Assembly: GCF_022773585.1 (NCBI RefSeq)
Contig: NZ_JALEZZ010000021.1
Strand: one strand, 5' to 3'
Source of the DNA: Selenomonas sp.
GTDB taxonomy: Bacteria; Bacillota; Negativicutes; Selenomonadales; Selenomonadaceae
Length of the DNA: 64,000 nucleotides
Both the position numbers and the translations under genes were made by a program. Of the stretch, positions 25,106-47,570 are shown one piece after another; the first letter of the stretch is position 1, and each line of letters starts with the position of its first letter. A model generated the notes under the pieces. It was given only the letters and a program-made list of their open reading frames with translations. It ran no database searches and was not told the origin of the DNA.

Positions 25106-25756
25106 TCAGTGATTGGAAAGCTGGAGAACAAGCGTCCCGCCATCGCCTGCGAGCGTCACGCTGTCGTCGCCGATGGCCGCGACCGTATAACCGCCGACCG
25201 TCTCGCCCTCCGCGACGAGATGGCTCTTCCCGCCCACGCGGATGACGGCGAGCGTCTGGCCATTGCCGCTCGCAACGCCCTTGAGCACCAGCGCCGGTGC
25301 CGGCGGCTCGGCCGCAGACGCATCTTCCACGACGGAAGCACGGCTCGGAGCCTTCGGCAGAGCGTTTTTAGGGGAATCGGCTGCTTTCGCAGCATCCGGC
25401 GTCCCAGCGGCCTGCGGCTGCTTTTCCTTCAGGGGCGCAGGCGCTGCTGCCATCTGTTCGCGCGTCTCGTGGAGCATCGAGAAAGGATTCCGGAGCTCGC
25501 CCGTCGCTTCCGCCTCGTCCACGCCCTTCACTTCGAGGCGCGACGGGCTGTTCTGCTTTGCATCGGCAGGCGCGGAGCTCGGCGGCTGCTTCAGCGCCAG
25601 CCGCTCATCATCCACGTTTTCCCAGAGAAACAGCGCGGCCGCGAAACAGAGCAGCAGTGCCAGAGCCCCGACCTCCGCCGCCTGCTTCGGCTGCTCCCGG
25701 CAGAACGCCCGGAGCCTCTGCCCCAGCTCCTCGAGCACGCGCCGCAGCTCCTCCAT
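25106..25756 (-). CDS. Hypothetical single-pass membrane protein with a Pro/Ala-rich linker and a PilP/GspC-like C-terminal beta domain
   Basis: TM segment GALALLLCFAAALFLW. The C-terminus LVLKGVASGNGQTLAVIRVGGKSHLVAEGETVGGYTVAAIGDDSVTL resembles the PilP/GspC HR-domain pattern (weak). Confidence 0.4.
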   Translation of the reverse strand: MEELRRVLEELGQRLRAFCREQPKQAAEVGALALLLCFAAALFLWENVDDERLALKQPPSSAPADAKQNSPSRLEVKGVDEAEATGELRNPFSMLHETREQMAAAPAPLKEKQPQAAGTPDAAKAADSPKNALPKAPSRASVVEDASAAEPPAPALVLKGVASGNGQTLAVIRVGGKSHLVAEGETVGGYTVAAIGDDSVTLAGDGGTLVLQLSNH

Positions 25757-25821: not shown

Positions 25822-27745
25822 TGATTTGACACGAAAAAAGAAAAGGGGGCTGTTGCAGTTATTTGCAGCAGCCTCTATTTCGTGCGCAAAAATCCCGGAC
25901 TGTAAAAAGCCCGGGATTTCGTGTAGAATTGAACTATGCAAAATCTCAATTCCATGCAAGATTATACTTCATTGGAGCAACCATATCAACTGGTGCTCCC
26001 CCTCAATGTCGAATTACAGATTCCCAAGGATGATCCCGTCCGCCTGGTGCGCTATTGCATTGGAGGAATGAATTTGTCGGCCCTGTATCAGAATTGCCAT
26101 CACGTCAATCGAAATCAGGCGTCGCCAGCGCAGATGCTCGCCATCCTTGTCTACGCCTACGCGAACCGCATCTTCTCCACGCGCAGAATCGAGGAAGCCT
26201 GCCGCAGCAATATCAAGTTCATGTATCTGCTGGAAGGAAAGCCTGCACCGGACCATGCGACCGTCTCCCGTTTCTTCACGAAGCGCCTGCGCCCCTGCAT
26301 CCGGGACATCCTCGCGCAGATGGGGAACCTCCTCGAAAAGCTCGGAGCCGTCTCCCTGCACGACATCTTCATCGACGGCACGAAGATCGAATCCGTCGCC
26401 AACAAGTACAAGTTCGTCTGGCGGAAATCCGTCGAGAAGCACCCAGCAAATCTCCTTGCGAAACTTCCAGCATTCTTCTCGCAGGCGGAGACGGACTTCG
26501 GCATCCGCATCCCCCATGGAGACGTCATCCGGATGCGCCACCTCAAGCGCCTGCGCCGCAAGCTCCGCCGAAAAATCTCGGAAGATGGCATCGTCTTCGT
26601 CCACGGTTCGGGAAAGCGGAAGACGCAGCTCCAGCGCACCTTCGAAGAACTCGAGAGCTGCATCGCAAGACTCAAAGATTACGGTGCGAGGCTCCATGAC
26701 ATGAAAGGGCGTAACAGCTTTGCGAAGACCGACAAGGACGCGACCTTCATGCGCATGAAGGAAGACGCCATGAGGAACGGCCAGCTCAAGCCTGCTTACA
26801 ACGTCCAGTACGGCAGCGACTCAGAGTTCATCCTCTGGGCGAGCGTCGGGCCGCAGGCAACTGACACCAGCACGCTCGTCCCGTTCCTGCGAGAGTTCGA
26901 ACAGTACTACGGAACACGCTGCGAGAACGTCGCTACGAAAGCGAAGAGAACTATACCTATCTTGAAACCCACGGCATGAAGTCGTTTATCAAGCCCATCA
27001 ACTACGAGAAGAGCAAGACGCGGAAATGGAAGAACGACATCGGGCGCTTCGAGAACATGACCTACCTCCAGGGCGAAGATGCTTACCTTTGCGCGAACGG
27101 CCGCAAGCTGAAAGCCGAGCGGACGTACCAGTCAAAGACGAAGACGGGGTATAAGAGCGAGAAAACATACTATGCCTGCGAAGATTGCACGGGCTGTCCG
27201 ATGAAGGAAAACTGCATCCACGGAAACCACTTCAAGAAGCCGATGGAAGAACGGACGAAGCACCTCACCGTCGCGAAGAAGTTCCTGCGCCAGCGACAAG
27301 AAGATCGAAAACGAATCACATCGGAGGAAGGCATAGAACTGCGGATGAACCGGAGCATCCAGGCAGAAGGAGCATTTGCAGACATCAAGGCCGACATGAA
27401 CTTCCGCAGATTCCTCTGTCGCGGCACGGAAAATGCGCTCGTCGCCGTCGACCTCCTGGCCATGGCGCATAACATTCAAAAATTGCACCATAAAATCCAG
27501 CATGGAACGGCAAGCCGCCACCGCATACCGGTAAAGGAAGCGGCGTAAAGCCGTCCAGACAAATGAAAACGGGCATAGAAAAAGACGTTTTTTAGAACCG
27601 TCTGGATTTCTATGCCCGTTTTTCAGCGTTTGACACAAAAATGAGCGCGAGAATCTCAACTTGTCTCCACGATACGAAAAGAGGGCTGTACAGCAGCGAA
27701 AAATCGCTAACTGCAACAGCCCCTTTTTCTCGCACAAAATCTATC
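25822..27745 (+). mobile_element. IS1182-family insertion sequence, probably inactive
   Basis: Terminal IRs: GGGGCTGTTGCAGTTA at 25846-25861 and its exact complement TAACTGCAACAGCCCC at 27708-27723, with imperfect extension. It encloses the split transposase gene. No clear target-site duplication was seen. Confidence 0.8.
25936..27548 (+). pseudogene. IS1182-family DDE transposase split into two ORFs (25936..26979 and 26976..27548)
   Basis: N-part ...NRIFSTRRIEEACRSNIKFMYLLEG..PDHATVSRFF (DUF772-type). C-part ...CTGCPMKENC...AEGAFADIKADMNFRRFLCRGTENA...AHNIQKL. The frame change lies near 26927-26940, where ENVA|YESEENYTYLETHGMKSFIK reads in the second frame. Confidence 0.75.
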
Positions 27746-27746
27746 C

Positions 27747-30700
27747 TTACGCTTCTTCCGCTTCGGGAAATGCTTTTTTCTTCACTTCCTCCGGCACAAT
27801 GCCGAGGAAATAATCCTCGAGCGCGTCCCAGATTTTTTCGCTCGACCAGCCGCTTTCGTAGAGGTATGTTAGCATGGCGACGGAGAGGCGGTGGCGGGCG
27901 TAGATTTCGCTGAGCAGGTGGTTGCGATAGGCCTTCGGCTGGCGGACAATGTTTGCAAGCGGCTCGGTCTGGTACATGTAGATGTAGAGCTTGCTGTCGG
28001 CGCCGCCTTTCATTTCAAAGGAAAGGACATTCAGTGCTTCGAGGAGGCCGAGCACGATGCTCGCGGCCCCCTTTTCCTCTTTTTGCACGAGGTAGAGCTG
28101 CCCGTCGTGCATCCCATCTTCGATGGCATGGAACCAATGCTCGACCCATCCGAAGAACTGCCGCACGGAACGGTTGAAGAGATATTGGCGCTCGCCGTTC
28201 TTGAGCGTCCGCACATTTATCACGGGCTGGAAGCCGTGGGAGAACTGCCGCAGGTAGACGTCGATGGACGCGAGCAGAACGTCGATAAAAGCGCTGGCTT
28301 CGTAGCTCTTGAACGGCGTCGCAGCCGTGAGAACGGAGGCGAGCTCCTCAGGCTTGCGGTAGCGGTTTTCGCTGAGACCCTGGTAAATGGTATCCTTGAG
28401 CGGCTTCCAGCAGTTCCAAAAGGCGCCCATGCCGCCCGCACCGACCGCGATGTCGACGCAGAGGGCCGGCTGCATGGCGTACTGCTGGTTGAAGGAGAAA
28501 TCGCCGTCGCGCGAATAGACGAGGTACTTGAATTTCGGGAACGATTCGCTGCCATAGGCACGCTTCCAGATGGCCTCGAGCTCAACGCTGCAGATGTGGT
28601 GCGCTTCGTCGAGCTCCGTCACAGTCTTGGGGAAAGCTTTGCGCAGTGTGCGCTGGACGGCGGGCTGGATGGCGAAGAAGCCGCGGCCGAACAGCGGGAT
28701 GGGGCGCACGGTGATGGGCGAGAAGCCGCGCTGCTGCTCGAAGTCCTTCTGGATGAGCAGGAGCGCTGTCTTGACTTTCGCGATGGCGCTGTCCTGGTCG
28801 CCTGCGTCGCCGCCGAAGAGATAGACGAAATTTTCCGCGTCGAGCAGCATGGCGTTGCGCTTCTTCGTATACGTGCCGCGACGCTCAGCCCGCAGCGCGT
28901 GGTACGTCTGGAGGAGCTTCTTGACGATGCCGACGAGCTGCCACATGCGGATGGCGGACATGCCCTGAAGCTGGTTGATGTAGCGAAAGTCATGCGCGTT
29001 GTAGGGATAGATGGCTTCGCCTTCGAGACCTTTTTTGCGCGCAGCACGGCCAATTTCCTGCACATAGTCGCAAACGTTCCCCGTCGGCGCGAAGTGGATA
29101 ATGTTTTCGATGTCGTCGATGTCGATACCCATGCCAAAGGCTTTCGTCGCGAGCATGATGGGCTTTCCACCTTTGAGGAACGCTTCGTAGTTCGCCTGCT
29201 TCTCGCGGCTGTCCATCGAGCCGTAATACATGGCGATAGACCGCTTTTTCGTACTGCCGCCGAGGTAGTCCCAGAACTTGCGAATGAGGCTGACCGTCGG
29301 GAAATAAATGAGCGTCTTGCGCTCAACCATCAAAGCGCCTTTGATCAACGCTTCGAGCTTTTTGAATTTATCGAGCTCGTACTCGAAGCGTCCGCCCTTC
29401 TCCGTCTCCAAAGGCTCGATGGTGATGTGGATGTCGTCCGCGCGCTTGACGTAACCGAGATACGTAATGGGCTCAATCATGTGAAGGCTGTCGATGGTCT
29501 CGCCGTACATGTCCTCGCGACCGCCGTAGATGGCCGTCGCCGTGAAGGCCGCAACGAGGAAATCGCGCGCTTTTTCCTGAATCTGATGCTTGCGGAGCTT
29601 GCGGATATGGTCGCCAAGGTACCAGTAATCGGGGCGGAACTGCTTGCCCCACGTCGTGACGATGTGCGCTTCATCGACAACGATGGCGCCGAGCGTGCGA
29701 TCGCCGATAAGCTGCTCGACGTCACTGCGCGCGAGCAGCGTCTCGGGCGAAAGGTACAGGATATCATACGTGCCATCCTGGACCTTTGCCATGATCTCTT
29801 GCTTTTGAATCGGCGTGATGTCGGAGTTGATCGTCGCCGCACCGGCATACGTGCGGCCTTCGAGGCCGGCGACCTGGTCGTTCATGAGGCCGATGAGCGG
29901 CGAGATGACGAGCGTCATGAGCTTCTGCTCTTTCGCGAGGACCATCGCGGGGATCTGGAACATCGCGGACTTGCCCGCGCCCGTCGGCGCCGTGACGAAA
30001 AGGTCGCGCGGCTGCTCGCCGCGCCCGCACGCCTCGGCCTCCTGCACGAACTGCGCGATGACGGCCTCCTGCGAGACCGTGCGGAGCTTCTTCTCCCCAC
30101 GCGCGAGCGCCGCAAGATCGTATACCTGGAAGGTGCGGAAGGCATCGGCGTGCCAGTACGTCTGCAAGAGCTCGGTATAGATGGCGCGATGCTCGAACGT
30201 CTCCGACGGCGCGGCTTCCTCGGCGAGAACGAGCTGCACGTCCGCGACGGACGCGAGCAGCACGAGCCGCTGCTGCAATCGCTCCTTCCCACCGGTATAA
30301 TCTGTGATGCGCAGCGCGACTGGGCCTGCAGGTTTTTCCAGTACCTCGCACACGAGCGCGAGGTAGTCCGTCTCGTCGAGCAGGTTCCGCGCCTTTTCCG
30401 CTTTCTGCGTCGGCAGCTTCCTCGCGACTTCGTCGAACAGCGGCTCGTCAAAGACTTTCGACGACGTCTCCTCCTCGGGGTACGCGGCATAGAGGCGGCC
30501 GTCCTGCTCGAAGAGCGCGCCGTAAATCCCCATCGCGTTCTCCGCCGCCCGCAGGTCCGTCTCCTCGCCGGCATCCGCATCGAAATGCGCGAGGAGTGCC
30601 GTGCGCACGTTCGCCGGCCACGCGGCCGCGACGGGGTATGTGTCGATGTAGAGATTGTTCCGCACGATCATGATTTCGGGGAACTCTGTCAAAAGATACG

Positions 30701-30932
30701 CCTTCAGCAACCGGTATTCTTCGATGAGCAGCACGTGGCGCTGTTTCGTGACGATCTCCTGCGTGAAATAGTTAATCGGATGCGAAAGCAGCGCCGCCCA
30801 GTCAATCGTGGCGAGCTCGGCGGCGAATGCGTCCGGCAGTATCGCCAGCGGCACGCCCTGGAGCACGACGATCGTGTCAGGTTCGCTTTGGAGGTTCTTG
30901 ATTTTCGATGCGATGTGGGTCTGGATGTTCAT
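27747..30932 (-). CDS. RecQ-like SF2 DNA helicase with ~300-aa N-terminal and ~400-aa C-terminal regions of unassigned family
   Basis: 1061 aa. Walker A TAPTGAGKS, DEAH box IVVDEAHIV, RecQ-signature TTWGKQFRPDY, ATKAFGMGIDIDD, motif VI YVQEIGRAARKG. AAGAGG lies 6 nt upstream of ATG 30932. Confidence 0.8.
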   Translation of the reverse strand: MNIQTHIASKIKNLQSEPDTIVVLQGVPLAILPDAFAAELATIDWAALLSHPINYFTQEIVTKQRHVLLIEEYRLLKAYLLTEFPEIMIVRNNLYIDTYPVAAAWPANVRTALLAHFDADAGEETDLRAAENAMGIYGALFEQDGRLYAAYPEEETSSKVFDEPLFDEVARKLPTQKAEKARNLLDETDYLALVCEVLEKPAGPVALRITDYTGGKERLQQRLVLLASVADVQLVLAEEAAPSETFEHRAIYTELLQTYWHADAFRTFQVYDLAALARGEKKLRTVSQEAVIAQFVQEAEACGRGEQPRDLFVTAPTGAGKSAMFQIPAMVLAKEQKLMTLVISPLIGLMNDQVAGLEGRTYAGAATINSDITPIQKQEIMAKVQDGTYDILYLSPETLLARSDVEQLIGDRTLGAIVVDEAHIVTTWGKQFRPDYWYLGDHIRKLRKHQIQEKARDFLVAAFTATAIYGGREDMYGETIDSLHMIEPITYLGYVKRADDIHITIEPLETEKGGRFEYELDKFKKLEALIKGALMVERKTLIYFPTVSLIRKFWDYLGGSTKKRSIAMYYGSMDSREKQANYEAFLKGGKPIMLATKAFGMGIDIDDIENIIHFAPTGNVCDYVQEIGRAARKKGLEGEAIYPYNAHDFRYINQLQGMSAIRMWQLVGIVKKLLQTYHALRAERRGTYTKKRNAMLLDAENFVYLFGGDAGDQDSAIAKVKTALLLIQKDFEQQRGFSPITVRPIPLFGRGFFAIQPAVQRTLRKAFPKTVTELDEAHHICSVELEAIWKRAYGSESFPKFKYLVYSRDGDFSFNQQYAMQPALCVDIAVGAGGMGAFWNCWKPLKDTIYQGLSENRYRKPEELASVLTAATPFKSYEASAFIDVLLASIDVYLRQFSHGFQPVINVRTLKNGERQYLFNRSVRQFFGWVEHWFHAIEDGMHDGQLYLVQKEEKGAASIVLGLLEALNVLSFEMKGGADSKLYIYMYQTEPLANIVRQPKAYRNHLLSEIYARHRLSVAMLTYLYESGWSSEKIWDALEDYFLGIVPEEVKKKAFPEAEEA

Positions 30933-31911
30933 GACATGCCTCTTTCAATATAGAATAGTGAACAGAGCGTTTCACTGTGTGCTGGAGACGTCGGAGCGCC
31001 CTGCTTTCGATCTGGCGGATGCGTTCGCGCGTCACGCCCAAGGCCTGTCCGACTTCCTCGAGCGTCTTCGGTCTTCCGTCGTCAAGTCCGTATCGCATCA
31101 TGAGGACGCGCGCTTCGCGCGGCTTCAAATCCTCGAGCAGCTCCATCATGATATTGCGGAATTCTTCCTTCCAAAGCAACGCATCCACATCCGGCTCCGT
31201 CTCGTCCGCCATGAAATCGCCAAGTGACGTATCGCCATCCTCGCCGACCGGCATGTCGAGCGATGCATAGTGCAAAAACATATCACGGATGGCAAACGCC
31301 CGCTGCACATGTGCGAAGGTCACGGACTTGTCCAGCTTGTTTAGTGATGCTGCAATCTTCCGCCATCGCTTTTCCTTATCCTTCACGCCATCGCGGTCCA
31401 GCTCACTGTCCATGCGCGTCACTTTGCGGATGAATTCATGCATGTGAACCGGCACGCGAATCATCGTGCCCTCGTCCATCATTGCCCGCTCGATCGCCTG
31501 CCGAATCCAGAACGTCGCATACGTGGAAAACTTCGCCCGCTTTGGATCGTAGCGCTCCGCCGCCTTCAGCATGCCCTCCAACCCAATCTGCTCCAAATCC
31601 TCCTTGGAAAGGTGGCACCATGGTGAACGGAGATAGCGTTGCACATAGGCAAGGACAAGGTTTCGATTGTTCACGAGGAGATCCTGCCGCGCCTGACGGT
31701 TTCCCTCCTGAATCATCTGGCACAACACCTCATTCGAGAGATTCGAACGAGGCAGATTCCACTCATGCGCGAGCCGCGTCTGCTCATCAAACGGCCGCGT
31801 ATCCTCGCCAACCTCTGCGCTATCCCCCCAGTCCTGATCCTGCTGCAACGCATCCTCCGTATCAAATGCATCATCGTCCGCCTCCGCAGCCGTCACTGCG
31901 GCGTCTTCCAC
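30877..31911 (-). CDS. Sigma-70 family (RpoD-like) sigma factor paralog with an acidic N-terminus
   Basis: Region 2: NLVLAYVQRY...EDLEQIGLEGMLKAAERYDPKRAKFSTYATFWIRQAIERA..MIRVPVHM. Region 4: RPKTLEEVGQALGVTRERIRQIESRALRRL. The only start in frame is GTG 31911, so the true N-terminus is uncertain. Confidence 0.8.
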   Translation of the reverse strand: MEDAAVTAAEADDDAFDTEDALQQDQDWGDSAEVGEDTRPFDEQTRLAHEWNLPRSNLSNEVLCQMIQEGNRQARQDLLVNNRNLVLAYVQRYLRSPWCHLSKEDLEQIGLEGMLKAAERYDPKRAKFSTYATFWIRQAIERAMMDEGTMIRVPVHMHEFIRKVTRMDSELDRDGVKDKEKRWRKIAASLNKLDKSVTFAHVQRAFAIRDMFLHYASLDMPVGEDGDTSLGDFMADETEPDVDALLWKEEFRNIMMELLEDLKPREARVLMMRYGLDDGRPKTLEEVGQALGVTRERIRQIESRALRRLQHTVKRSVHYSILKEACHEHPDPHRIENQEPPKRT

Positions 31912-32131
31912 TTTCGTTGCTTCCCGATACTTCTGATGCTGGCACCGTCTCCAACGCCTCGGCCGGCAGTTCCTTCACGAATACAATGCCATTGTCATTC
32001 AAAATCTGGCGAATCTCCCGCAGCTGCCGCTTGCTGAAGAAATCACAGAACAAAAAGTCGAACTCCTTCTCCGTCATCCACTGTCCATGCGCATGCTCCC
32101 GCGCCCATTTCAAAATCACATCCGCATGCAT
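31871..32131 (-). CDS. Small ORF overlapping the sigma-factor start in another frame; possibly the detached N-terminal region of that sigma factor
   Basis: ATG at 32131 after GGAGAGAGG. MHADVILKWAREHAHGQWMTEKEFDFLFCDFFSKRQLREIRQILNDNGIVFVKELPAEALE... It overlaps the sigma ORF by 41 nt. Confidence 0.45.
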   Translation of the reverse strand: MHADVILKWAREHAHGQWMTEKEFDFLFCDFFSKRQLREIRQILNDNGIVFVKELPAEALETVPASEVSGSNESGRRRSDGCGGGR

Positions 32132-32230
32132 CGGCAACACCTCTCTCCAGTCCTCCGCCGCCGTGGGACGCTTCTCATTTCTCTTATGAAATTCTCTACG
32201 AATTGGAAAAATCCTCTTTGCAAATAAAAA

Positions 32231-32318
32231 GAGATGTTGCAGTTATGTCACCACTTGTCTCCATGACACAAAGAAAAGGCTGCGCAGTAGCGAAAAATCG
32301 CTAACTGCAACAGCCTCC
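32231..32318 (+). mobile_element. MITE-like miniature derivative of the IS1182-family element
   Basis: TGTTGCAGTTA (32235-32245) ... TAACTGCAACAGCCTCC (32302-32318). The internal ~65 nt are about 85% identical by eye to the right end of the IS (27655-27723). Confidence 0.7.
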
Positions 32319-32347
32319 TTACCATTCAGGTATCATCGATTTACAAC

Positions 32348-33829
32348 TCACAGCACGAGCCCCATCCATGTCCAGTACGTCTTCGTGAGCAGCAGCGTCA
32401 CGAGGTATGCGAGGATGGTCAGCGGGATGCCGGTCTTGATGAAGTCTTTGACTTCGAAAGTCTCCGTGCTGTAGGCAATCATGTTCTGCGGCGCGTTGAC
32501 GGGCAGGATGAAGCCGAAGCAGATCGTGTACTGCAGGATCATGACCATGCCGACGACGTTGAGCGGGTTGTGCTCGGCCGCGCCCTGCATGACGGAGATG
32601 CAGATCGGGATCATCGCAGACGAGAGCGCTGTCGCGCTCGCGAAGCCGAGATGGATGACGATGAGGAACAGCGCGAGCACGGCAATGATGAAGAAGCCCG
32701 TCGCGTCGAAGAGATGGAAACTCGTGACGATTTCATGCGCAATCCAGGCACCGGCCTTCGTCGAGAGGATGGCCGAACCGAGGCTGATGCCGACGCCGAA
32801 CAGCATCAGCGTGCCCCAGCCGATGCGCTGCTGGGCTTCTTTCCACGTCATGATGCCGATGCCCGGCAGCATCATCAGCGTGATGGCGACAATCGTCGTC
32901 GAGGACGTGTCAAAGGGATGGACTTTCTTTTCCGTCGCCCAGAAGAACAGCAAAATGCACGAGAGGATCATGAGCTTCTTTTCGTCGCTGCCCATGGGGC
33001 CGAGGGCGCGAAGCTCTTTTGCGATTTTTTCCTTGCCGCCCTCGATTTCCTTCATTTCTGGCGGCATCATCTTCAGCAGGACGAAATACAGCAGCACGCT
33101 CATGATGACGGCGAACGGCGCGGCGGCGATGAACCAGTCGAGCCAGCTGATCGTCGTGCCGAGCTGCTTCTCGATGAAACCGAGCGCGACCATGTTCTGC
33201 GCAGCGGCCGTCTTGATGCCGACGTTCCAGATGCTGTCAGCCTGCGCGACGGCGATGAGCATGATGGCCGCGAACTTGCTCTTCTTCGAGACACCGAAAA
33301 CGGCGATGATGCCCATGACGATCGGCACCATGCAGCTGACGCGCGCCGTGGTGCTCGGCACGAAGAAGCTCAGCACGAAGCCCGTGAGGATGACGCCCGC
33401 GAGGACGTGGTTCGTCTTCGCGCCGATCTTCGAGAGTACGAAGAGCGCGATGCGCTTGTCGAGGCCCGTCTTCATCATGGCAGCCGCGATGAACATCGCC
33501 GCGCCGACGAGCGCGAGTGCCGATGACGAGAAGCCTGCAAGCGCGAGCTTCAGGCCTGCGGACGTGCCGAGCATTTTCGACGGGTTCGCCATGTCCGGCG
33601 CCGTGCCAAGCAGGAACGCCATGAGCGAGATGATGATGCCCGACGAAACCGGGTACGAGACAGCCTCTGTCATCCAGATGATGACGGAGAAGATCAGGAT
33701 GCCGATCATGCGGTGTCCGGCCGACGAGAGATCTGGCGGTGTCGGCAGTGCGAGCACGGCAATCAGCACGAGGATGGCGATGGGCAGGCCCATCTTGCGG
33801 AATCTGCTTTCTGGTTTGCTTGTTTGCAT
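32348..33829 (-). CDS. DASS/SLC13-family anion (di/tricarboxylate or sulfate):Na+ symporter
   Basis: ATG at 33829 after AAGGAGGGGG. 493 aa, more than 12 TM segments, ...VIIWMTEAVSYPVSS... and a repeated hairpin SNT-like motif region. Confidence 0.75.
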   Translation of the reverse strand: MQTSKPESRFRKMGLPIAILVLIAVLALPTPPDLSSAGHRMIGILIFSVIIWMTEAVSYPVSSGIIISLMAFLLGTAPDMANPSKMLGTSAGLKLALAGFSSSALALVGAAMFIAAAMMKTGLDKRIALFVLSKIGAKTNHVLAGVILTGFVLSFFVPSTTARVSCMVPIVMGIIAVFGVSKKSKFAAIMLIAVAQADSIWNVGIKTAAAQNMVALGFIEKQLGTTISWLDWFIAAAPFAVIMSVLLYFVLLKMMPPEMKEIEGGKEKIAKELRALGPMGSDEKKLMILSCILLFFWATEKKVHPFDTSSTTIVAITLMMLPGIGIMTWKEAQQRIGWGTLMLFGVGISLGSAILSTKAGAWIAHEIVTSFHLFDATGFFIIAVLALFLIVIHLGFASATALSSAMIPICISVMQGAAEHNPLNVVGMVMILQYTICFGFILPVNAPQNMIAYSTETFEVKDFIKTGIPLTILAYLVTLLLTKTYWTWMGLVL

Positions 33830-47342: not shown

Positions 47343-47401
47343 ATCACTTGTCAGTTGCGAGACACGAAAGCGAAAGCCAAGAGAAAAGCAACGAAGACAA
47401 T

Positions 47402-47477
47402 GCTGATTTAGCTCAGTTGGTAGAGCAGCTCATTCGTAATGAGCAGGTCGTAGGTTCAAGTCCTATAATCAGCTCCA
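47402..47477 (+). tRNA. tRNA-Thr (anticodon CGT)
   Basis: Manual cloverleaf: acceptor GCTGATT/AATCAGC, D-arm GCTC-AGTTGGTA-GAGC, anticodon arm GCTCA-TTCGTAA-TGAGC, T-arm GTAGG-TTCAAGT-CCTAT, encoded CCA. Confidence 0.9.
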
Positions 47478-47483
47478 TATTTT

Positions 47484-47559
47484 GCTGATTTAGCTCAGTT
47501 GGTAGAGCAGCTCATTCGTAATGAGCAGGTCGTAGGTTCAAGTCCTATAATCAGCTCCA
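47484..47559 (+). tRNA. tRNA-Thr (anticodon CGT), identical tandem copy
   Basis: Sequence identical to 47402-47477, with a 6-nt spacer. Confidence 0.9.
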
Positions 47560-47570
47560 TTGGAAGCACG

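Follow-up and report, generated by a model that had tools for sequence, protein, structure and literature searches.

Why should a gene for a sigma-70-family factor lie directly upstream of a gene for a RecQ-like helicase, and why should both be enclosed by the ends of an insertion sequence (IS)? The question is raised by a 64,000-nucleotide stretch of contig NZ_JALEZZ010000021.1 from Selenomonas sp. (assembly GCF_022773585.1), referred to below as the window. An operon running from sigma factor to helicase is the sole cargo between a defective IS1182-family element and a miniature inverted-repeat transposable element (MITE) derived from that IS. The whole inserted unit, consisting of the defective IS, the helicase gene, the sigma gene and the MITE, measures about 6.48 kb (25844..32320), as delimited by the junctions of an empty site in a relative. 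The initial annotation could not place such a pairing in any described system, and we too found no description of a module of a sigma factor and a RecQ-like helicase in PADLOC, NCBIfam or the searched literature. The association of the two genes is real and widespread, and it has so far gone undescribed.

The helicase family was found in 227 of 185,579 species genomes by a pattern scan built from the helicase alignment and run on one genome per species; 80 loci of these 227 relatives were kept. The hosts, among them many bacteria of the gut and rumen, are scattered over several phyla. They include Selenomonadaceae, Phascolarctobacterium, Lachnospiraceae, Oscillospiraceae, Ruminococcus and Thermoanaerobacterium, as well as Erysipelotrichaceae, Mucispirillum, Desulfovibrionaceae, a Tenericutes metagenome-assembled genome (MAG) and Gastranaerophilales. 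In 74 of the 80 loci, a gene upstream of the helicase and in the same orientation was matched by a sigma-factor hidden Markov model; of the six remaining loci, four lie on contigs that end at the helicase. This leaves 74 of 76 informative loci with the sigma gene directly upstream and two (L066 and L073) truly without it. The median gap between the genes is 13 nt; in the window, the end of the sigma gene overlaps the start of the helicase gene by 56 nt. The distance matrices of the two proteins are strongly correlated (r = 0.91, Mantel p = 0.001, 59 pairs), and a reverse look-up from sigma homologues again found the helicase as the next gene.

Plasmids carry the pair too, at 32-33% helicase identity. 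On a conjugative plasmid of Enterococcus faecium it stands beside a type I restriction-modification (RM) system and IS30, and on plasmids of Lactiplantibacillus plantarum it stands between IS982 and a YafQ toxin gene with IS256. The Selenomonas helicase is 47-48% identical to Lachnospiraceae versions and 45-46% identical to other Selenomonadaceae versions. Co-occurrence of the two genes across genomes, which the initial annotation had left to be looked for, is thus borne out by their adjacency in the informative loci, by the plasmids and by the reverse look-up. The sigma-helicase pair is a conserved, co-inherited and horizontally mobile cassette of Negativicutes, Clostridia, plasmids of Bacilli and a few other phyla.

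The gene content of the cassette had first been described as three open reading frames (ORFs), a small one followed by a sigma factor and a helicase. The last two are as described; the small one is the beginning of the sigma gene. In alignments, the ORF at 31871-32140 matches 60-65 residues at the N-terminus of the intact sigma factors of relatives, which are 378-420 residues long, and the block therefore holds two genes, not three. On the same alignment, a separate gene, a regulator or an anti-sigma factor at this position was rejected. The sigma-70-family gene occupies 30877..32128 on the minus strand and is split into a part for the N-terminal domain (32128-31871) and a part for regions 2-4 (31911-30877). 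Four copies of the unit from independent assemblies (L007, L010, L011 and L184) are 99.7-100% identical to the window, and each encodes a single sigma factor of 420 residues. Compared with these copies, the window has one 9-nt unit fewer and one extra G, a net difference of 8 nt that shifts the frame. The 9-nt unit CAGAAGTAT, located in the linker of the sigma factor, is present once in the window (31926-31935) and twice in the four copies (L007:524-541). It adjoins the frameshifting G at 31923-31925 (minus strand), where the window has GGG and the other copies GG. Among the five known copies the frameshift is private to that of the window, and either the sigma gene has lost its function in this genome or the assembly is wrong at this point. 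The neighbouring helicase ORF is intact and identical to that of the other copies.

The sigma ORF at 30877-31911 matches Pfam Sigma70_r2, r3 and r4 above the cut-off, and its best PDB matches are SigA proteins (E = 1e-45). In sigma-70 factors, regions 2.3/2.4 and 4.2 carry the residues that recognize the -10 and -35 elements. The corresponding motifs here, FSTYAxWWIxQAIxR (regions 2.3/2.4) and VTRERIRQIE (region 4.2), agree with those of SigA and show at least 90% conservation among 59 members of the family. Since the protein keeps both the core-binding residues and those of sigmaA-type recognition, it would be able to load onto core RNA polymerase; it should bind the core enzyme and read sigmaA-like promoters. 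It scores 201 with the primary-sigma profile TIGR02393, below the cut-off of 354, and the Pfam regions r1_1 and r1_2 were not found in it even at E ≤ 10. The helicase-linked proteins form a distinct subfamily, in that 28 helicase-linked clusters outscore the first true RpoD; true RpoD proteins cover only about 59% of the query. In 59 members the N-terminus consists of a conserved domain of 60 residues and an acidic linker of 13-108 residues. We considered the possibility that this domain is a region 1.1, and rejected it: the resemblance is confined to its position and the acidic linker, with no support from Pfam. A promoter scan gave no convincing promoter upstream of the sigma gene.

The helicase (27747..30932, minus strand; 1061 residues) was identified from Pfam, PADLOC, an AlphaFold model and conserved ATPase motifs. 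It is made of an N-terminal domain (residues 1-300), a core (about 300-660) and a family-specific C-terminal domain (660-1061). The core matches Pfam DEAD and Helicase_C and is of the RecQ type of superfamily 2 (SF2). It aligns with RecQ over residues 309-655 (NCBIfam TIGR01389 / TIGR00614), with scores below the curated RecQ cut-offs (180 versus 640 and 162 versus 220 bits). Across 120 homologues, no variation was seen in Walker A, DEAH and motif VI. By sequence and by fold, the best matches in PDB are the cores of RecQ, RECQL5, WRN and BLM. Foldseek with the full-length model (predicted local distance difference test score, pLDDT, 85.5) gave E = 1e-21 to RecQ catalytic cores; it returned only RecQ cores and is little informative on the C-terminal part. 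The initial annotation had noted a RecQ core devoid of the accessory domains of housekeeping RecQ, and this holds for the family. The Pfam domains RecQ_Zn_bind, RQC and HRDC are absent from the window helicase and from 59 homologous C-terminal domains, and no conserved Cys4 cluster is present in the alignment of 120 homologues. The C-terminal domain could conceivably contain a structural RQC-like winged helix.

Both terminal domains had been singled out as belonging to no recognizable family, and our searches agreed. Residues 1-300 and 660-1061 matched no Pfam family, nothing consistent emerged from 45 and 59 homologous domains, respectively, and profile searches of PDB with the two domains gave no match. 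For the model of the N-terminal domain, the best Foldseek hits in PDB and BFVD had E values of 8e-3 and 2e-2 with a template-modelling (TM) score of about 0.15, which we counted as no match. These 300 residues are modelled with a pLDDT of 94.6, and the predicted fold is an orphan. The N-terminal domain is also the most variable, with 20-32% identity between homologues versus 33-45% for the C-terminal domain. A search of 1.84 billion representatives gave 379 clusters (E ≤ 1e-3) for the C-terminal 400 residues, which are found almost only at the end of family proteins of 1000-1250 residues. Judged from its conserved motifs, the pair is under purifying selection for its ATPase and sigma functions.

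How the cassette came to lie in the window is answered by a metagenome contig of the Joint Genome Institute (JGI) that comes from a close relative (L117) and has flanks 91-95% identical to the window. In this contig the stop codon of a symporter gene is followed by a spacer of 68 nt (L117:1092-1159) and then by the sequence corresponding to window position 25827. The stretch between about 25844 and about 32320, with the IS, the helicase gene, the sigma gene and the MITE, has no counterpart in it. Comparison of the window with this empty site places the left junction at ...AAAAAAGAAAA|GGGGGCTGTTGCAG and the right junction at ...CAGCCTCCTT|ACC|ATTCAGGTATCA. Conversely, the empty site has a terminator hairpin of 37 nt that the window lacks. 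The block of 6.5 kb is an insertion, not core genome, and its ends are the left inverted repeat (IR) of the defective IS and the right IR of the MITE.

The initial annotation had further seen in this geometry a composite or mobilizable unit. The geometry and the insertion are real. The transposase is defective, the junctions with L117 show no target-site duplication, and all five known copies of the unit (those of the window, L007, L010, L011 and L184) occupy one site. Insertion as a unit is thus demonstrated by the empty site, and active composite transposition is not. The unit has the inverted, IS-derived ends around a cargo and the empty site that are found with composite transposons and IS-plus-MITE units; it differs from them by a transposase defective in cis, by the lack of a target duplication, by the 37 nt of the empty site that are missing and by its restriction to one site. 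The terminal motif of the IS is absent from every other sigma-helicase locus, and the association with this IS is therefore specific to this unit.

The same site is occupied in Selenomonas sp. SUG563 (L010) and RUG102 (L011), two MAGs from the rumen. From 25771 to 32374-32458 these are about 99.9-100% identical to the window, with a handful of single-nucleotide polymorphisms, whereas their flanking genes are only 88-93% identical to those of the window, with a step at both ends of the unit. These steps coincide with the IS and MITE repeats, at which assemblers of metagenomes may jump from one strain to another, and the near-identity of the unit in diverged backgrounds is to that extent provisional. 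The observations suggest a single insertion downstream of the symporter terminator, followed by transfer among related lineages of the rumen, for which homologous recombination in the flanks is the simplest route; mobilization in trans by an intact copy of the IS is possible. The intergenic region after the symporter gene has the appearance of a hotspot for insertions. It is variable, since three close relatives (L120, L127 and L144) carry other cargo there, among it an AAA_14/DUF4143 ATPase and an MBOAT protein. In one of these relatives, L127, the 3' end of the symporter gene is moreover duplicated over 81 nt.

What, then, might the cassette do? It does not resemble a pair of housekeeping genes. 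Our preferred reading, to which we give a probability of about 0.5 on sequence and context, is that it is an accessory module that acts in conflicts with mobile genetic elements, and thus a candidate anti-phage or anti-plasmid defence. Its neighbours in other genomes include type I, II, IIM and IV restriction enzymes, Vsr, Dcm, WYL, NERD-UvrD, PbeA, HicAB/RelBE/YafQ, integrase shufflons and IS elements. The recurrent ones are a MutH-like type II endonuclease with Dcm (11 loci), methyl-directed enzymes of the AspBHI/Mrr type (5 loci), Vsr (6 loci) and NERD-UvrD (3 loci). Clusters with RM, Vsr or NERD-UvrD genes were found within a few kb in at least 16 of 78 loci (a raw count, with no background set). 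About one-fifth of 126 immediate neighbours, from some 70-odd loci, match PADLOC defence models (again a raw count with no background set); the immediate neighbours also include WYL regulators, PbeA, RmrA and type IV enzymes. An identical three-gene cassette lies behind GmrSD on one contig and behind HsdR on another, with integrase shufflons nearby. In 20 of 78 loci there is a third gene, which encodes a UvrD/Schlafen-type P-loop protein of 655 residues and is placed either before the sigma gene or between the two genes.

Several observations weigh against a role in conflict. About four-fifths of the 126 immediate neighbours are non-defence genes, and PADLOC matches to generic families inflate the apparent association with defence. 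Eight Selenomonadales MAGs (L040, L045, L047, L059, L062, L067, L081 and L083) have the housekeeping-looking gene order trpE/G, low-molecular-weight (LMW) phosphatase, sigma factor, helicase and TrxB-like protein. In these loci the phosphatase gene (PF01451) overlaps the start of the sigma gene by 4 nt, and it may be a fourth member of the operon or a vertically inherited context. Neither protein shows a recognizable nuclease, protease, NADase or membrane effector by Pfam or by Foldseek with the N-terminal model, and the module is absent from the defence catalogues that were searched.

If the cassette acts in such conflicts, the helicase would be an ATP-driven DNA translocase or unwinder, and its fast-evolving orphan N-terminal domain, together with the conserved C-terminal domain, would probably select the target or a partner. 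As no classic effector domain is recognizable, the output would probably pass through RNA polymerase or through the action of the helicase itself. Two arrangements can be envisaged, both of which involve a putative contact between the two proteins. Either the sigma factor links the helicase to transcription complexes, or the helicase retains the sigma factor and sets it free upon sensing foreign DNA, so that transcription would be reprogrammed or blocked.

A bolder possibility, which we regard as tentative and rather unlikely, is that the pair represents a new class of immune system acting through RNA polymerase, with the primary-like sigma factor as sensor or effector. The sensor of nucleic acids would then be the RecQ-like helicase, equipped with orphan domains, and a sigma factor held by it would be released by foreign DNA to shut down or redirect transcription. 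Alternatively, the sigma factor might serve as a decoy or back-up for a housekeeping sigma factor attacked by phage anti-sigma proteins.

Sigma-70-family proteins have a precedent in defence with MzaA, although this is a fusion of 726 residues that works with MzaB-E. The sigma factor of the window gives a hit to MzaA in PADLOC and scores 202 with the NCBIfam profile of MzaA (NF041931), for a cut-off of 800, and this only through the generic sigma part; no Mza partners are present in the unit. CalpS and the sigma factor of type III-E Craspase are of the extracytoplasmic function (ECF) type and are controlled by proteolysis of an anti-sigma factor. By contrast, the sigma factor studied here is primary-like, has sigmaA-type recognition residues and is paired with a helicase. 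CalpLTS is reported to yield a transcriptional response. The 'SIGMA-HTH' of a paper on BREX was also considered and set aside as an unrelated domain remark.

Among helicases, housekeeping RecQ and the eukaryotic RECQL5, WRN and BLM have an SF2 core with RecQ-type motifs in common with the window helicase; the latter is twice as long, has orphan N- and C-terminal domains and is devoid of the Zn-binding, RQC and HRDC Pfam domains. RecQ-like cores are also found in defence islands, in DpdF of the Dpd system and in PsyrT/RqlH of PsyrTA, with PADLOC E values to the window helicase of 1e-60 and 7e-47, respectively. These alignments are restricted to the core, and no sigma partner is known in the Dpd and PsyrTA systems. 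With the DpdF profile NF041063 the window helicase scores 133, for a cut-off of 550; there are no dpd genes, and the neighbours in the window are housekeeping genes.

We considered the possibility that the cassette serves the mobile elements themselves, as a portable module for transcription and DNA processing by which plasmids, integrative and conjugative elements or transposons settle in new hosts. Its sigmaA-like factor would guarantee that promoters are used, and the helicase would act in replication, recombination or evasion of restriction. Plasmid-encoded sigma factors do exist, for example SigN of the Bacillus subtilis plasmid pBS32. The presence of the pair on conjugative and mobilizable plasmids, its IS flanks, including the IS-bounded position in the window, and the fact that the predicted targets of the sigma factor are generic sigmaA-type promoters, with no special regulon, all agree with this possibility. 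Yet most copies are chromosomal, genes for conjugation or replication are not adjacent, and restriction and toxin-antitoxin genes recur beside the pair, as is typical of defence islands. Moreover, 50,697 phage records contained neither the pair nor a full-length homologue of the helicase, only generic RecQ cores. We consider a service to mobile elements possible but doubtful.

Somewhat less credible still is a cellular function in stress or genome maintenance, in which an alternative sigma factor would be paired with a RecQ-like helicase that repairs DNA or resolves R-loops, and which would have been captured here between IS ends. Helicases of the RecQ family take part in repair, and the RECQL5 of eukaryotes binds to RNA polymerase II. 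The conserved trpE/G, LMW phosphatase and TrxB-like synteny of the eight Selenomonadales MAGs fits the vertical inheritance of a cellular function. Such a function is difficult to reconcile with the very patchy distribution of the family (227 of 185,579 species), the presence of which varies between close relatives, with its occurrence on plasmids and with the about equal proximity of the Selenomonas helicase to Lachnospiraceae and Selenomonadaceae versions. In addition, the sigma factor is dispensable in the window, since its gene is frameshifted.

If the pair were an addiction module in the manner of PsyrTA/RqlHI, the helicase would be a toxin and the upstream sigma-like protein its neutralizer and autorepressor. 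The order of the genes, with the small partner first and overlapping the second gene, is that of type II toxin-antitoxin operons, toxin-antitoxin genes are frequent among the neighbours, and PADLOC PsyrT matches the helicase core. This match covers residues 309-633 only, that is, the shared RecQ core, and the partner is a sigma factor, not a PsyrA-like protein. The strong conservation of the core-binding and promoter-recognition regions would be needless in an antitoxin, and an intact helicase beside a frameshifted sigma gene, as seen in the window, is not expected if the helicase is toxic. An addiction pair therefore seems improbable.

Finally, the helicase matches the PADLOC model C3a193 (PDLC01089) over residues 231-1044 (E = 2.2e-134), which leaves its N-terminal 230 residues outside the model but places it in the same helicase family. 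The model derives from cluster 193 of Shah et al. 2018 (PMC6546367), a group of three members, with Thebr_0949, located beside type III-B/D modules and labelled 'possible alternative Cas3', with no mention of a sigma factor and no functional test. An accessory helicase for type III CRISPR-Cas is nevertheless very improbable here, as the window contains no CRISPR array, it and about 80 other loci show no cas context, and the 25 most-matched PADLOC families among the 126 immediate neighbours contain no core cas family, only WYL regulators.

If the cassette is indeed a defence or conflict module, it would be a system that has as a partner a full sigma factor with housekeeping-type promoter recognition, and it would tie immunity directly to the transcription machinery, a common target of phages. 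The family is compact, with two genes and an optional third, and offers clear active-site residues for mutation. Its presence in cultivable hosts (Selenomonas flueggei, Phascolarctobacterium, and Enterococcus and Lactiplantibacillus with their plasmids) makes it directly testable. The helicase adds a confidently predicted domain of 300 residues with no structural relative in PDB or BFVD. The locus itself is a clean natural example of a cargo unit bracketed by an IS and a MITE, with a matching empty site, that appears near-identical in lineages whose flanks differ by 8-10%.

Variants of the cassette were also encountered. Six contigs from IMG/VR (L170-L175) encode distant helicases (about 30% identity, about 1120-1200 residues) followed by a gene for a protein of about 590 residues, with no sigma gene. 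Three other loci (L070, L075 and L085) have a sigma gene, a helicase of 1170 residues and a NERD-UvrD gene. Either of these arrangements may be a sister system. In one locus (L018:7986-14905), two family helicases of 1073 and 1061 residues stand in tandem, and in another (L066:2752-11243), a helicase gene, a UvrD-like gene and a second helicase gene follow each other without a sigma gene. A contig labelled Escherichia coli (L057, CAVCLW010000006.1) has the same gene pattern as Phascolarctobacterium succinatutens (L051) and probably belongs to a mis-binned or mislabelled MAG.

The elements that border the unit were characterized from their repeats and from transposase profiles. That the block is bracketed by an IS1182-family element and a MITE derived from it had been proposed in the initial annotation, with coordinates that proved right to within a few bases. 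The IS (25839..27730, plus strand) is non-autonomous and has terminal IRs of 23 nt (25839-25861 and 27708-27730), which a repeat search of the window found to be 96% complementary. Its assignment relies on Pfam DDE_Tnp_1_6 and DUF772 and on the NCBIfam profile transpos_IS1182 (NF033551), which matches both fragments of the transposase. These score 190 and 94 for a cut-off of 270, each falling short because the gene is split. The N-terminal fragment (25936..26979, plus strand; 347 residues) covers positions 6-315 of the profile, and its frame breaks at ...CENVA|. The C-terminal fragment (26976..27548, plus strand; 190 residues) lies in a true frame that is open from about 26883. The window transposase is 48-51% identical to an annotated IS1182 transposase, an intact copy from Butyrivibrio. 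Comparison with the latter revealed a deletion of 10 nt (window 26930-26980) by which 'DAG' of ADAGYESEENY, including the second Asp of the DDE triad, is lost and the reading frame is changed; this copy of the IS is therefore unable to transpose alone.

The MITE (32219..32320), recognized by its direct and inverted repeats, is about 100 nt long with its own inverted ends. It consists of the left IR of the IS and about 73 nt of its right end, these right 73 nt being 82% identical to the IS right end. The left IR of the IS and the right IR of the MITE had been reported as an inverted pair around about 6.5 kb, and they do form a correctly inverted pair of 19 nt with 95% complementarity. The core of the IRs, TAACTGCAACAGCC, occurs four times in the window, for 0.21 occurrences expected by chance.

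RNA folding of the minus strand predicted two hairpins with a U-tract. One, terminator-like and formed by the right end of the IS (27682..27723; -37.3 kcal/mol, z = -5.1), lies directly 3' of the helicase stop codon. The other, formed by the right end of the MITE (32275..32318; -32 kcal/mol, z = -4.6), lies directly 3' of the symporter stop codon, where it stands in place of the native terminator hairpin of the empty site in L117. An Rfam search of the region gave no match. The native hairpin (12 bp; L117:1092-1159) has AAAA..CTGCAACA in common with the end of the IS, a likeness that could be due to chance or to target mimicry.

Other differences between relatives were noted outside the unit. 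A 216-residue, Ala/Pro-rich ORF of no known family (25106-25756, minus strand) shows 75-82% nucleotide identity between the window and RUG102, for about 92% in its neighbours. In the SUG563 MAG, an extra gene for a protein of 409 residues (L010:3633-4862), absent from the window, lies between the genes for formate-tetrahydrofolate ligase and the symporter. At 47401-47560, the window contains two identical tandem units of 82 nt that resemble duplicated tRNA genes.

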